Assembly: GCA_946411515.1 (NCBI GenBank)
Contig: CAMKEH010000005.1
Location: 14,442-78,441 of the forward strand
DNA: 64,000 bases
Reading direction: 5' to 3'
DNA from: an uncultured Clostridium sp.
Lineage (GTDB): Bacteria > Bacillota > Clostridia > TANB77 > CAG-508
Of the stretch, positions 33,622 to 46,442 are shown one piece after another. A model generated the notes under the pieces. That model saw only the letters and a list, made by a program, of their open reading frames with translations, was not told the DNA's origin and made no database searches. The position numbers were made by a program, and so were the translations under genes. Position 1 is the first letter of the stretch; every line of letters starts with the position of its first letter.

Positions 33622-34716
33622 ATGGCAACAAATCCAATGCAAAGAAAAGCAAGAAATTCATTTTTATTAGGAATGTTAGTGACTCTATTATTAGCAGGGG
33701 TTATAATAGCGTTTTTGGTTATTCAATTAAAAAATAAAACAGACAAGGAAAAAGCTGAATTACAAGCAAGCGTACAAGCCTATGTCTTAAATCAAGATGT
33801 AAGTTCAGGGCAAGTAATTACAACAGATATGTTAACTAAACAAACGGTTAATAGAAATTTAGTTCCTAGTAATGCTACAAGCGATATTTCGATAATAGAA
33901 AATTATGCTTTACAAGATAAAGAAGGAAACAATATATATACAAAGATTGATAATGGACAAGCTAAGTTATACATAGAAAAAAACAACAGGGAATATGAAG
34001 TAAAACAAGAAGAAGAAACTGATAATTACTATATTTCAAGAAATAATGATAAAGAATATTTGGAATTAGATAGTGTTCCACTAGTAGCAAAAGTAACTAT
34101 GAAGAAAAATACATTAGTTACAACAGAATTGCTAAGTAAAGCTGATAATATAGTACAAGATGATGTTAGAAAGCAAGAATATAATATGATAGTACTACCA
34201 ACTGATTTAACAACTGGAGATTATATAGATATAAGAGTAATGTTTCCAAATGGACAAGATTTTATTGCTGTAGCAAAAAAAGAAGTTGAAATTCCTCTTA
34301 TAGATGGAGTGGAATCATCAGACACAATATGGATAAATTTATCAGAAGATGAGATACTACACATGAGTTGCGCTATAGTAGATAGCGCTCAAGTCAAGGG
34401 GTCAAAAATATATGCTACAAAATATACAGAAGCAGGAATGCAAAATGCGGCAACACCAACATATCCTGTAAATGAAAGCACATCACAATTATTACAAAGT
34501 GATCCTAACGTAGTAGAAAAAGCTATGAATGAAATGAGAACAAGATATTCAAATGGAAATAGTGCAAATCTTAGAAATAATTACATAAATAGTTCTATAA
34601 ATAGCCAAGGTGAGCAGTCACAATCTAATCTAGAAACAAAAATGGAAGAAAGTGTGACAAATTCTAAAAATTCAAGAAAACAATATCTAGATTCTTTATC
34701 AGGTTCAAGTAAGTAA
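33622..34716 (+). CDS. CpaB/RcpC-like Flp pilus assembly protein
   Basis: N-terminal TM helix, a SAF-like segment (VLNQDVSSGQVITTDML) and a CpaB-like beta domain (LPTDLTTGDYIDIRV). Confidence 0.6.
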   Translation: MATNPMQRKARNSFLLGMLVTLLLAGVIIAFLVIQLKNKTDKEKAELQASVQAYVLNQDVSSGQVITTDMLTKQTVNRNLVPSNATSDISIIENYALQDKEGNNIYTKIDNGQAKLYIEKNNREYEVKQEEETDNYYISRNNDKEYLELDSVPLVAKVTMKKNTLVTTELLSKADNIVQDDVRKQEYNMIVLPTDLTTGDYIDIRVMFPNGQDFIAVAKKEVEIPLIDGVESSDTIWINLSEDEILHMSCAIVDSAQVKGSKIYATKYTEAGMQNAATPTYPVNESTSQLLQSDPNVVEKAMNEMRTRYSNGNSANLRNNYINSSINSQGEQSQSNLETKMEESVTNSKNSRKQYLDSLSGSSK

Positions 34717-34738
34717 TGAAAAGAAAGGGGAAACACTA

Positions 34739-35437
34739 ATGAAAAAAATAGGGTTTATAGGGGCTTATGACAAAATAGATTTAGTTATATATATTGCAAA
34801 AATCATAACGACTTTAGGAAAAAAAGTTTTAGTTATTGATTCAACTGTAAATCAAAAAGCAAGATATGTAATACCTGTTATAAACCCAACTAAAAAATAT
34901 GTGACAGAATATGAAGAAATCGATATAGCTGTTGGATTCTCTAATCTTAAAGAAATAAAGCAATACTTAGGAGTAGCAGAAGATCAAGACATGGAATACG
35001 ATATAGTATTTATCGACACTGATAATATAGAAGGACTTGAAAGTTTTGGTTTGCAAGATGCTATAAAGAATTATTTTGTTTCATCTTTTGATGCATATTC
35101 TTTAAAGAAAGGGCTAGAAATTTTAAGTCAATTAAAAAACGTAATGAGTTTAACGAAAGTACTGTTTTCTAAAGAAATGTCTGTTGAGGAAGATAATTAT
35201 TTGAATTTTTTATCTTTGGGATACAAAATAATTTGGAATGAATACAAAATATATTTTCCTATTGAAAATGGAGATCAAAGTGTAATATATGAAAATCAAA
35301 GAGTAGCAAAAATTAGATTTAAAAAGTTAAGTATAGAATATAAAGATCAACTTGAATATATGTCTGAAGAAATATTAGGAAATGTAAGTGGAACAGAGAT
35401 AAGAAAAGCGATTAAAAATATAGAAAAAGGAGTATAA
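34739..35437 (+). CDS. ParA/MinD-fold protein with degenerate P-loop (TadZ-like accessory)
   Basis: MinD-like spacing (IGFIGAYDKIDL ... VLVIDST ... VFIDTD) but no GK[ST] Walker A. Confidence 0.45.
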   Translation: MKKIGFIGAYDKIDLVIYIAKIITTLGKKVLVIDSTVNQKARYVIPVINPTKKYVTEYEEIDIAVGFSNLKEIKQYLGVAEDQDMEYDIVFIDTDNIEGLESFGLQDAIKNYFVSSFDAYSLKKGLEILSQLKNVMSLTKVLFSKEMSVEEDNYLNFLSLGYKIIWNEYKIYFPIENGDQSVIYENQRVAKIRFKKLSIEYKDQLEYMSEEILGNVSGTEIRKAIKNIEKGV

Positions 35438-35439
35438 AA

Positions 35440-36279
35440 ATGTCAGTTGTAACATTTTGGAACAATGGAAAAGAACAAACTGGAAAAACTCTATCTATGG
35501 TAGCCATTAGTACATACATGGCAATAGAACATAATTATAGAATATTAGTGGTTTCGACAGGCTATAAGGATGAAACCTTAAAAAGATGCTTTTGGAAAGA
35601 AAAAAAAGCAAGAAAAAATCTTGGACTATTTGGGCCAAACACTAATGCTTCTTTAGAAAGTGGAATAGTTGGATTATCAAAAATAGTAAATAGCAATAAA
35701 ATTTCTTCAGAAAACATAACTAACTATACAAAAATAATATTTAAAGACAGACTTGAAGTATTAGAAAGTTTTTCAGGAGGAGAAGTAGAATATAAAAAAT
35801 TAAAAAATCTGTATCCTGAAATTATAAGCTTAGCTAACAATTATTATGACCTAGTATTTGTTGATTTAGATAATGAGATAGAACAAGAGGTTTCAGATAA
35901 AATTTTAGAAAATTCTAATCTTGTAATTGCAAACATAAGCCAACGTTTATACAGCATAGATAGATTTATGGAGTTAAAAGAAACAATACCAGTTTTAAAT
36001 TCTAAAAAAACATTATTATTAATGGGAAGATATGATAAATTTTCAAAATACACAATTAAAAATGTGACAAGATATATGAAAGAAAAAAATAAGGTATTAA
36101 CAATACCTTATAATACACTATTTTTTGAAGCGTGTGAAGAAGCAAAAGTACCAGAATTGTTTTTTAATATAAAGAGTTTAGAAAACGATGAAAGAAACAG
36201 TGTTTTTGTGGAAGAAGTAAAGCGCGCATCAGAAAATATTATGTATAGGCTACAGGATTTAGCAGCAACAAAAATGTAA
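35440..36279 (+). CDS. TadZ/CpaE-like ParA-family ATPase
   Basis: Deviant P-loop NNGKEQTGKT and Walker-B-like LVFVDLD. Translationally coupled to the previous gene. Confidence 0.55.
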   Translation: MSVVTFWNNGKEQTGKTLSMVAISTYMAIEHNYRILVVSTGYKDETLKRCFWKEKKARKNLGLFGPNTNASLESGIVGLSKIVNSNKISSENITNYTKIIFKDRLEVLESFSGGEVEYKKLKNLYPEIISLANNYYDLVFVDLDNEIEQEVSDKILENSNLVIANISQRLYSIDRFMELKETIPVLNSKKTLLLMGRYDKFSKYTIKNVTRYMKEKNKVLTIPYNTLFFEACEEAKVPELFFNIKSLENDERNSVFVEEVKRASENIMYRLQDLAATKM

Positions 36280-44740: not shown

Positions 44741-44757
44741 GAATATATAATCAATAT

Positions 44758-44795
44758 AAGTAGCTTGTAACTAAATTAATAGTTGCAAGCTATTT
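44758..44795 (+). terminator. strong hairpin (partial terminator/attenuator) between the pilin block and the last locus gene
   Basis: TAGCTTGTAACT / AGTTGCAAGCTA form a 12-bp stem (one G-U), followed by TTTAAAAA. Confidence 0.5.
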
Positions 44796-44830
44796 AAAAA
44801 TATAAACGAAAGAGAGTTGTAAGTTTTATT

Positions 44831-46442
44831 ATGAAGTTACAAAACCTAGCAGTAATATTTGCAATTATAATACTTCCAATATCATTAATATTAGGAATAT
44901 ATATAGATAATCAAATAGAAACATTAAGATTGCAAATTTCATATGATTCAAAATTAAATAATGCTACATATGATGCTCTAAAAGCATTTCAACTAAATAC
45001 TGTAAATAATAGTGCATCAGATTTATCTGAATCTAAAATTAGTGATATTGAAGCATCTGTTAATTCATTTTTTAATTCTATTGCTAGTAACTTTAATATG
45101 CCAGGATATAATAGAGATGTTTTAAAAGAATATGTACCAGCTTTAGTATATACTATGTATGATGGATACTATATATATTCAGAATATAATAATAAAATAA
45201 CTAGTGAAGATTATTTAACTCCAGAACAAGCCAATGAAAGAAAAGCTACTGGAGAAGACGTTGAAGCATCAACATATCAAGATGGAGAACAACTATCAGG
45301 ACTAAAATCATATGTATACTATAGTTGTAGATATAAGAAAAATGACGCAGATTTTGTTATAACATATTCTCTTGATAATTATATTACTATTAAAGGAGTA
45401 GACTACTCTTCTGGAAAGATAATTGATGAAGCAGGATATCTTATTGATAATATTAGTGGAGATGAAAATAATATAGAATATAGAGATATTCAAATAAATA
45501 ATGAAGATAATCTAAGAGAATATCTTGTAGAAAATGATGGTACAATAAAAGAATATACATATAAAAAAATTAATGGAGTAAAAAATTATAAGGTTGAAGA
45601 AACTGGGAAATGTTTTTCTATACTTAATGGCGAAAGAATGTATACAAATGATGTTTTTAATCAAGAGAGAAATAATTCAGCTGTAAAATATTATTCTGAA
45701 GCAAAAACATTCAGAGAAAATATTAATAAATATATTGATGGTTTAAAACCTACAGATGCAGTAGGAATAGATGAAGAGACAAAGAAAGAATGGCGGAGAT
45801 TATGATATTTTCCAAGATTCAAAACATTCAATTGAAGAACCAAATTCTAATTTTAACCAACATAGAAGAGAAGTAATAAAATATGCAATTGAAAAAAATT
45901 TATCTACTGCAATAGCAAATTTCAACAATTTTACAAGTTCTACAAATAATTTTCAAATGCCTAAATTAAAAGAAACAGAATGGGATAAAATATTAAATCA
46001 TATTTCTATAATAAGCTTTTTACAAGGATTAAATATTGGTGGAAAAGTATATAATGGATATTCAATAATAACAAATACAAAAAATAAAGAAGTTGTGAGT
46101 GAAGATTCAATATATATATTAGATGATGGATATTATCACAATCCACTAGAAGAAGAATTAAGTAGTAACTTGAGTGGTTCAGCAAGAGGAATATTGAATA
46201 TAGATTTAGAAAGAAAAGCATATAGTATGGGAACAAATACAAAGTACTATTACCCAACACCAGCGTTTGCTAGTTATTCAAGTGTAGTAAGTCAAAGTAA
46301 AGTTTCTGATGCAGAAAATATTTATAAATATTTTGATGATTTAAAATCAAGCACAGAAGGTAAAAACCTTGCTATGTTATATTATACAGCACTTGCAAGA
46401 GAAAGATATGAAATGTATAGAACAGATAATTCTTTTAAGTAA
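44831..46442 (+). CDS. large (about 536 aa) N-terminally anchored Tad-locus protein; frame moves +1 at in-frame CGG 45794-45796
   Basis: Track ORFs 44831..45805 and 45771..46442 join as ...ETKKEW|GDYDIFQDS... when C45794 of TGG-CGG-AGA is skipped. Confidence 0.7.

Follow-up and report, generated by a model that had tools for sequence, protein, structure and literature searches.

A predicted Tad-type filament locus of the gut order TANB77 and the apparently leaderless N-termini of its pilin-like proteins

Introduction

How might a type IV filament be built by a gene cluster whose pilin-like proteins carry no recognizable leader and whose surroundings hold no prepilin peptidase gene? The question is raised by a 14-gene cluster at positions 33622-46442 of a 64,000-nucleotide (nt) stretch of DNA (hereafter the window; contig CAMKEH010000005.1, assembly GCA_946411515.1) from an uncultured Clostridium sp. 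of the gut order TANB77. An initial annotation, made from the sequence alone, had described this cluster as a Tad/Flp-like type IV filament locus with atypical machinery and no prepilin peptidase.

The cluster has been described before. Kim et al. (Nat Commun 2024; PMC11680825) reported a pilus cluster conserved in 122 of the 129 species of TANB77, comprising the 12 genes for proteins 927-938 of HRGM_Genome_2725, with sizes of 358, 231, 280, 640 (one transmembrane (TM) helix) and 693 (eight TM helices) amino acids (aa), then a series of pilin-like proteins and finally a protein of 621 aa. Annotation with AlphaFold2 (AF2) and Foldseek assigned 927 to CpaB by structural match, 928 to TadZ, 929 to CpaE and 930 to TadA/CpaF; the two halves of 931 matched TadC and TadB, 932-937 were pilin-like, and 938, with a TadE/PilV-like N-terminus, showed partial structural resemblance (PMC11680825). 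Recombinant 938 activates dendritic cells via TLR4 and is reported to improve anti-PD-1 therapy in mice, and the cluster proteins were stated to be essentially confined to TANB77 at a similarity of at least 50% (PMC11680825). A peptidase, a leader peptide, a hairpin and electron microscopy are not mentioned in that paper (PMC11680825). That earlier work already covers the locus, the Tad-like reading of it, the TM helix of the ATPase and the fusion of the platform; what we examine here is a known locus with unexplored mechanistic oddities. Missing from the literature that we searched are the conserved leaderless N-termini, the lack of a nearby peptidase, and a wider range that includes cultured hosts and megaplasmids.

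Results

The cluster in the window agrees with the published one gene for gene, from the CpaB-like protein through the large last protein, both in gene order and in size (364, 232, 279, 655 with one TM helix, 691 with seven to eight TM helices, eight small proteins, and a split last gene of ~540 aa); the ATPases span 640-655 aa and the platforms ~691-693 aa. It differs in possessing three tandem candidate major subunits, giving 14 genes versus 12, and in a frameshifted orthologue of 938. All open reading frames (ORFs) lie on the + strand with spacings of 2-90 nt and a Shine-Dalgarno sequence ahead of nearly all of them (Table 1), which bears out the co-directional, tightly packed arrangement first noted. 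Pfam and NCBIfam scans of all 15 ORFs of the locus return meaningful matches for the ATPase and the CpaB N-terminus only, both sub-threshold. Close homologues of both the ATPase and the 691-aa protein number in the thousands in gut metagenomes, and at least 554 tblastn-confirmed matches were obtained in GTDB species genomes. The 80 loci kept from these come nearly all from uncultured Clostridia/Clostridium metagenome-assembled genomes (e.g., CAG:575, CAG:389 and Candidatus Merdicola); we take these Clostridia/Clostridium sp. CAG and Candidatus Merdicola relatives to be members of TANB77.

Table 1. Features of the cluster, with window coordinates and the basis of each assignment
Feature	Position	Strand	Basis
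CpaB-like protein, 364 aa	33622..34716	+	N-terminal TM helix, then SAF-type domain
TadZ-like ParA/MinD-fold protein without Walker A, 232 aa	34739..35437	+	orthologue profile
CpaE-like ParA/MinD-fold protein with deviant Walker A (GKEQTGKT), 279 aa	35440..36279	+	orthologue profile
Membrane-anchored CpaF/TadA-family secretion ATPase, 655 aa	36294..38261	+	PDB CpaF, TIGR03819, motifs
Fused platform protein with two TadB/TadC-like (T2SSF-like) modules, 691 aa	38286..40361	+	hhalign
MENA-type pilin-like protein, 258 aa	40388..41164	+	N-terminal motif, then one TM helix
MENA-type pilin-like protein, 155 aa, N-terminus MENASKALIMAAEVLVGVL	41186..41653	+	same-position conservation in relatives
Small bitopic or signal-peptide protein, not MENA-type, 143 aa, MKKIAIFFFIII...	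41713..42144	+	positional conservation in TANB77 relatives
Candidate major subunit, paralogue 1, 129 aa	42227..42616	+	tandem paralogy
Candidate major subunit, paralogue 2, 144 aa	42664..43098	+	tandem paralogy, AF2 model
Candidate major subunit, paralogue 3, 146 aa	43110..43550	+	tandem paralogy
MENA-type pilin-like protein, 206 aa, MENAVDALKMAAAV	43571..44191	+	N-terminal motif
Core bitopic protein p13, 175 aa, MGDTLITIVAIALAAILMFVFPLM...DRTDD	44213..44740	+	orthologues in TANB77, Paenibacillus and plasmid loci
Hairpin between pilin block and p14	44757..44796	+	folding energy, positional conservation
Large bitopic protein p14, orthologue of published 'pilin 938', frameshifted	44831..46442	+	tblastn

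The motor links the cluster to known Tad systems. Residues 270-539 of the ATPase match Caulobacter CpaF chains in the PDB (E 5e-9), and its best NCBIfam match is TIGR03819, the 'TadA family conjugal transfer-associated ATPase' (E 9e-9). The expected motifs are in place, namely a Walker A (GEQGCGKT at 379), an Asp-box-like element (ETAFEL at 406), a Walker B (IIGEV at 449) and a His box (TLFTHHA at 473). In Pfam the protein scores 22.8 bits against T2SSE, under the cut-off of 24.9, and many orthologues at 88-91% identity carry PF00437. Core identity is 72% to the counterpart on a Thermobacillus plasmid and ~26% to Rhizobium CpaF. Judged by its sequence, the protein is a remote but significant CpaF/TadA relative. 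Its N-terminus is strongly hydrophobic (MTITNIVLTLIVLVVAGYIVYYIV; Kyte-Doolittle 2.7), and this TM helix recurs in Paenibacillus and metagenomic relatives. The 'TadA' annotated on the Thermobacillus plasmid is preceded by an in-frame hydrophobic helix (LIINFIFIAIILISSGLLLY, L087 9094-9171) that resembles the TM anchor of the window ATPase; the annotated start probably truncates that gene.

The 691-aa protein encoded directly after the ATPase has seven hydrophobic segments on a Kyte-Doolittle plot and an all-helical AF2 model with a predicted local distance difference test (pLDDT) score of 84.6. Neither its single sequence nor a 47-sequence profile or consensus finds a Pfam or PDB sequence match, T2SSF was not found by Pfam in the 47 homologues or in the consensus of either half, and hhalign detects no internal repeat between half 1 and half 2. 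Its affinity emerges from profile comparison. When aligned by hhalign to seven annotated T2SSF/TadB/TadC sequences, residues ~125-328 match with a probability of 90.4% (E 1.4e-6), and reversed-sequence controls stay below 1%; single TadB/TadC-type sequences yield nothing, and the signal appears with the seven-sequence alignment only. A natural dissection of the protein is provided by the Clostridium botulinum plasmid p1_CDC51232, where two separate proteins of 298 aa and 359 aa correspond to half 1 (83.5%) and half 2 (97.1%), respectively. Because of the matches to the T2SSF alignment and these split platform genes, we accept the 691-aa protein, on sequence grounds, as a predicted TadB-TadC-type fusion, a tandem of two T2SSF-like modules. 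Some Paenibacillus homologues of the platform (P0351, P0391, P0392 and P0413) are named 'GTPase SAR1' in public databases, which looks like an annotation error.

The three genes ahead of the ATPase are more weakly anchored. The CpaB-like protein matches TIGR03177 (pilus_cpaB; E 1.5e-6, residues 18-90) and the FlgA C-terminal domain (E 1.8e-6), both below curated cut-offs, with weak Pfam SAF and ChapFlgA matches; its plasmid orthologues are annotated as 'SAF domain-containing protein'. Single CpaB-like and ParA-like sequences find nothing in the PDB by phmmer, and profiles are required for the ParA-like pair. For the first of these, a profile of 24 orthologues has MinD (4v03, E 2e-4) as its best PDB match, followed by Wzc, ParA and Soj; the protein lacks a GK[ST] motif, and its single sequence has no Pfam or PDB match. 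For the second, Pfam CbiA scores E 0.0014, below cut-off, and a profile of 22 orthologues finds ParA (3ea0, E 0.004), then GET3 and Soj. At the profile level both are weak but consistent candidates for ParA/MinD relatives. In several TANB77 relatives (L059, L078 and L082) the second protein has glutamine in place of the Walker A lysine (GQS/GQT), and its counterparts in Paenibacillus and Thermobacillus have a degenerate motif; a conserved ATPase activity is improbable for this protein.

A TadA/CpaF-clade ATPase, a CpaB/RcpC protein and ParA-like TadZ/CpaE proteins, the hallmark set of Tad/Flp loci, are all found in the window, every match being remote. The machinery part of the initial annotation is upheld by these comparisons: a CpaB-like first gene, two ParA/MinD-fold proteins of which one lacks Walker A, a CpaF/TadA-like ATPase with T2SSE homology that is 655 aa long and begins with a TM helix, and a platform candidate about the size of TadB plus TadC fused, for which our alignments agree with the published Foldseek matches (PMC11680825). 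Its label 'Tad/Flp-like' survives in the first half only. The predicted machine is Tad-like, and the subunits are not Flp-like, being proteins of 129-260 aa with a globular domain and no G/xxxxEY leader. Each of the eight small proteins does open with one hydrophobic helix, as had been claimed, and so does the last gene, which is split by a frameshift and not the single ORF that was supposed.

These N-termini set the locus apart. Six window genes start with MENAxxAL, and the six-frame translation of the window contains the pattern ME[ND]AxxA[LV] six times, always at a gene start within the locus; we call these proteins MENA-type. Among 320 pilin-like proteins from 82 related loci the pattern is nearly invariant (M1 in 320, E2 in 317, N3 in 319, A4 in 305, A7 in 320 and L8 in 319) and is followed by a hydrophobic stretch of ~22 residues. 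No leader, no basic leader residues and no Gly at -1 (0/320) were found in this set. In 304 of the 320, translation starts at the earliest start codon available behind an in-frame stop, which leaves no space for a leader; a Shine-Dalgarno sequence precedes 315. The acidic residue stands at position 2, versus the usual Glu5. Within a locus, four to six paralogues with unrelated outer domains have the octapeptide in common, a sequence pattern that would be expected for subunits recognized by one machine. A literature search found no paper that joins 'leaderless' to prepilin peptidase, pilin and Tad.

The gene at 40388 most likely begins at its second ATG, giving MENAVKAL, and an independent assembly (L001) calls the counterpart from the equivalent codon. 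The 143-aa protein that lacks the motif has a counterpart of the same length in L001, and its orthologue, 934, has been listed as having a signal peptide (PMC11680825).

The three tandem candidate major subunits share identical first 36 residues, and their 5' 250 nt are 76-82% identical. Between species the N-terminus and the C-terminal strands are conserved around a hypervariable middle. An AF2 model of paralogue 2 (78 sequences; pLDDT 77) places an N-terminal helix of ~53 residues (2-39 plus 43-54) before a four-stranded alpha/beta domain (strands at 58-62, 88-91, 117-122 and 137-143, helix at 63-79). This predicted layout is pilin-like, corresponding to the general helix-plus-sheet arrangement of type IV pilins. 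No Flp or TadE match was found in Pfam or NCBIfam for the small proteins or for 32 N-domains of p14.

The absence of a TadV-type peptidase in or next to the locus, which had been listed among its unusual features, is confirmed for the whole window; its standing as an unusual feature is not. A prepilin peptidase is lacking from all MSH loci (PMC6668835), and the C. botulinum p1_CDC51232 locus, which has canonical leaders, holds no peptidase gene within 9 kb, so that absence of the gene alone is common in the type IV filament superfamily. The oddity lies in the leaderless N-termini instead. No A24 peptidase is annotated within 10 kb of the cluster in the Paenibacillus, metagenomic or plasmid relatives.

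The family reaches well beyond TANB77. An exhaustive HMMER search with the platform collected 1145 clusters at 50% identity, 546 of them at E <= 1e-30. Members at 25-37% identity are found in cultured Paenibacillus species and, in addition, on 35 large Firmicutes plasmids from Paenibacillus, Clostridium (including C. argentinense pRSJ17_1), Lysinibacillus, Butyrivibrio, Thermobacillus and others. Homologous loci in Bacilli and Clostridia (pTHECO01, Paenibacillus, Lysinibacillus sphaericus, pRSJ17_1 and Butyrivibrio) retain the core order and comprise the SAF protein, two ParA-like proteins, the TadA-like ATPase, the fused platform, one to three bitopic proteins with short N-termini, p13 and p14, with fewer MENA paralogues than the window. 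Short N-termini in the remote loci include MENIASFL and MENISTGL (Paenibacillus), MSTNASKAL (Thermobacillus), and MEESGNSAL and MDNVPSSAI (metagenomic loci). We found no functional characterization of any of these plasmid and chromosomal homologues.

Several of these relatives have distinctive neighbours. In two Paenibacillus loci (L083 and L084), pTHECO01 (L087) and pRSJ17_1 (L088), the cluster is followed by a cell-wall-binding, SLH or Cu-amine-oxidase-N protein and, also downstream, by a very large DUF5704-type or unannotated protein. GGDEF and HD-domain genes occur in the two plasmid loci and are absent in the window, and L084 adjoins an FtsK/SpoIIIE (EssC-like) gene and a WXG100 gene. In a metagenomic locus (L085 1-5237, 43% guanine plus cytosine (GC)) a VirD4/TraG-type coupling protein and an NlpC/P60 hydrolase are encoded immediately upstream of the cluster, and proteins with TasA-like signal peptides and a giant SpaA/SdrD adhesin downstream of it; the setting resembles a mobile element.

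The C. botulinum plasmid locus (L090; NZ_CP031095.1, ~206.8-213.2 kb) is an unannotated Tad-like locus that combines an RcpC/CpaB protein, a T2SSE ATPase that passes the Pfam cut-off and, after the ATPase, the two adjacent 'hypothetical' platform genes introduced above. It encodes five proteins of 57-162 aa with canonical KKGG/LS prepilin leaders, for example MLKKFKNSLKNKKGG/LSQLLSVV.

The last gene, p14, is interrupted by a +1 frameshift that yields ORFs at 44831-45805 (324 aa) and 45771-46442 (223 aa). A tblastn search with the p14 of a relative (L003) places its aa 1-304 in one frame (44831-45787) and its aa 326-529 in another (45810-46430); the exact site cannot be located within 45771-45810, a region that varies between species. 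The split is also present in the independent assembly. Orthologues are mostly single ORFs of ~520-640 aa (range 327-1239), and their N-terminal ~180 aa are conserved family-wide; a profile of this N-domain has no Pfam or PDB sequence match. A second +1 frameshift lies within 1.4 kb. In the spoIVB gene (46498-47734, + strand), one inserted nucleotide near 47119 separates a PDZ-containing ORF (215 aa) from a Peptidase_S55 ORF (207 aa); the window reads GCAGCTCGGTGTT, and relatives, in which the gene is single and encodes 366-423 aa, read GCAGC-AGGAGTT. This split likewise recurs in the independent ENA assembly L001; either the gene is a genuine pseudogene or the two assemblies share an error.

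The strong hairpin that had been noticed between the pilin block and p14 is real. It has a 17-bp stem and a folding energy of -22.7 kcal/mol (z = -4.9; 0/200 shuffles equally stable) and occurs at the equal position in ~23 of 29 relatives with differing stem sequences, some of them with a clear T-tract (e.g., L016). In the window the T-tract is weak, and a terminator scan did not list the hairpin. The element is likely a leaky intrinsic terminator or an RNA-stabilizing stem, a partial terminator between the pilin block and p14 being the simplest reading; graded expression, as first proposed, is plausible. A scan for sigma-70 promoters was uninformative in DNA of ~25% GC, with 100 sites found against 104 expected.

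The cluster is flanked by recN (28040-29671; SMC_N/AAA_23 in the L001 annotation), hpf, a small acid-soluble spore protein (SASP) gene and spoIVB. Within 28040-47734, some 17 kb separate recN from spoIVB and hold a von Willebrand factor A (VWA) adhesin, hpf, the SASP gene, a HAD hydrolase and the entire pilus cluster. As recN and spoIVB are neighbours in Bacillus subtilis, this spacing suggests an old insertion between them. The VWA gene, 2 kb upstream of the cluster (30079-31419, - strand), is a second, unrelated adhesin or pilin gene of the sortase type. Its product is a surface protein of 446 aa that has, besides the VWA domain, a signal peptide, a tip-pilin Ig domain of the GBS104-like kind and the sortase motif LPKTG. 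Between spoIVB and murC, a 183-aa coiled-coil-like protein (47895-48446, + strand) contains four to five tandem 11-residue units (HMLIDEQNKEM / HMLVDEQNKEM). A link to sporulation was considered for the spoIVB and SASP neighbours and rejected, as no support was found; a prophage origin was rejected in the face of conserved synteny and no phage genes.

Discussion

We put the probability at roughly 60% that this locus encodes a highly divergent, monoderm Tad-type type IV filament machine, vertically inherited in TANB77. The CpaF/TadA-family ATPase, anchored in the membrane through its N-terminal helix, would drive a platform made of two TadB/TadC-like modules in one 691-aa chain. The platform would pull bitopic subunits from the membrane and stack them via their long N-terminal helices into a fibre, with the CpaB-like protein serving as an envelope-side ring or conduit. 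The two ParA/MinD-like proteins, as analogues of TadZ/CpaE, would scaffold or position the machine, one or both of them probably being catalytically degenerate. The three tandem MENA proteins of 129-146 aa would supply the major subunit pool, and the remaining MENA proteins, p13 and p14 would act as minor, priming or tip subunits, the hairpin past the pilin block reducing read-through into p14. Because the subunits start directly with Met-Glu-Asn-Ala-x-x-Ala-Leu, they would be made without a class III leader, and a prepilin-peptidase step would be unnecessary. Individual subunit roles, independence from a peptidase and the biological function are points that we infer; as to function, adhesion to the host or to other microbes is the most likely. 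More tentatively, with the odds somewhat against it, the MENA proteins may be filament subunits made in mature form, representing a leader- and peptidase-free type IV lineage with a fused platform and a tethered ATPase that is widespread and unrecognized in Firmicutes.

Several observations weigh against these proposals. In none of the carriers has a filament been observed. No pilin-like protein has a Pfam or PDB-sequence match, and Foldseek searches of the PDB give no usable match for the pilin model (best E 1.7) or the full-length platform model (best E 0.29). T2SSF homology of the platform, the absence of which would have told against the initial annotation, appears at the profile-profile level in half 1 and is weak in half 2, where residues ~510-666 align to identical template columns with a probability of 17.7% (E 1.4e-3). 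Measured against class III signal peptides, the subunits possess the hydrophobic N-terminal helix and lack the leader, Gly at -1 and Glu5; the acidic residue 2 is itself not invariant outside TANB77, as seen in Paenibacillus apiarius (MNNAQSAL, next to MDNARILI in this species). No A24 peptidase is found among the polytopic ORFs of the 64-kb window, which is a small part of a ~1.8-Mb genome, and an A24 gene may lie elsewhere. Finally, the frameshift in p14 may leave the system impaired in this genome.

That margin for a distant peptidase gene gives room to a canonical type IV filament, in which the MENA proteins are cut near the N-terminus, for example after Ala4, by an A24 peptidase encoded elsewhere. 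Peptidases are often shared and missing from loci, as the MSH loci (PMC6668835) and the C. botulinum plasmid locus illustrate. We nevertheless consider such processing unlikely. The would-be leader would be three to four residues long and net negative, with no basic residue and with no Gly at -1 in all 320 proteins, whereas class III leaders are otherwise basic and end in Gly or Ala; moreover, conservation in the MENA proteins is highest over the first eight residues, which is unexpected in a leader that is discarded. The same short N-termini, together with the lack of a peptidase, of microscopy and of any match to known pilins in sequence or structure, would also suit ordinary bitopic members of a membrane-embedded, ATPase-driven complex for secretion or envelope remodelling that forms no extracellular filament. 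The initial annotation had named a prediction of this kind as one that would undo it. The predicted ~53-residue helix plus sheet, which is pilin-like, an octapeptide common to the paralogues, hypervariable exposed domains in the candidate major subunit, and a relative in C. botulinum that pairs canonical prepilins with homologous platform proteins all argue against such a complex, and we judge it quite improbable.

A different function is suggested by the company that some relatives keep. The machine might be a DNA-transfer or mating apparatus, either conjugation-associated or a DNA-uptake pseudopilus, that TANB77 domesticated from a module of a plasmid or an integrative and conjugative element. 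An equal gene set occurs on the 35 large Firmicutes plasmids; the pTHECO01 cluster lies near a replication-relaxation gene, that of pRSJ17_1 near a C40 peptidase, and the L085 cluster behind its coupling protein and wall hydrolase. The name of the best NCBIfam match of the ATPase refers to conjugal transfer, and C. botulinum neurotoxin plasmids of similar size have been reported to carry conjugation genes (PMC4824171). For TANB77 itself the evidence points the other way: relaxase, coupling protein and wall hydrolase are all missing from the locus, which is flanked by recN, hpf, a SASP gene and spoIVB, the cluster is vertically conserved in ~95% of the species, and the tandem amplification and hypervariability of the major subunits fit a surface-exposed fibre. 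MOB-suite, in addition, classifies 35/35 of the plasmids as non-mobilizable. A transfer apparatus thus seems doubtful to us as an explanation of the locus, and it stays alive, at least for the plasmid versions, because some loci adjoin mobility genes.

A Tad-type filament machine remains our preferred reading, and comparison with characterized systems indicates how far it would have diverged. With the Tad/Flp (Cpa) systems of Aggregatibacter, Caulobacter and Rhizobium, the window shares the CpaF/TadA ATPase, CpaB/RcpC, ParA-like TadZ/CpaE proteins, TadB/TadC-type platform modules and several minor-pilin-like proteins downstream. It differs in a fused platform that Pfam T2SSF does not detect, an ATPase that is ~200 aa longer and membrane-anchored, and subunits of 129-260 aa with a globular domain versus Flp pilins of 50-80 aa; it has no G/xxxxEY leader and no TadV and, as a monoderm system, no secretin or TadD. 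The type IVa and Com pili of monoderms resemble it in their pilins of 130-170 aa, with an N-terminal helix and a beta-sheet head, and in the lack of an outer membrane. In contrast, they employ PilB/ComGA-type ATPases and a single PilC/ComGB platform of ~400 aa, and their pilins, unlike the window subunits, carry class III leaders cut by PilD/ComC. The C. botulinum p1_CDC51232 locus has the RcpC/CpaB protein, the T2SSE ATPase and platform proteins homologous to the halves of the window platform. Its platform is split, its ATPase is 468 aa long and has no TM helix, and its pilins, at 57-77 aa, have the size of Flp and carry basic leaders that end in GG. It is a more canonical relative and may be an evolutionary intermediate.

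The cluster is the proposed source of 'pilin 938', so that its ability to build a fibre, and the way in which it would do so, matter for a clinical biomarker. Its plasmid versions may serve cell-cell contact. Cultured, tractable carriers in Paenibacillus, Thermobacillus and Lysinibacillus (e.g., P. polymyxa M1, T. composti KWC4 and L. sphaericus C3-41) make the question testable without culturing TANB77. Leader cleavage by A24 peptidases is regarded as universal in the assembly of type IV filaments; a leaderless lineage, if true, would be a natural experiment on the purpose of that step.

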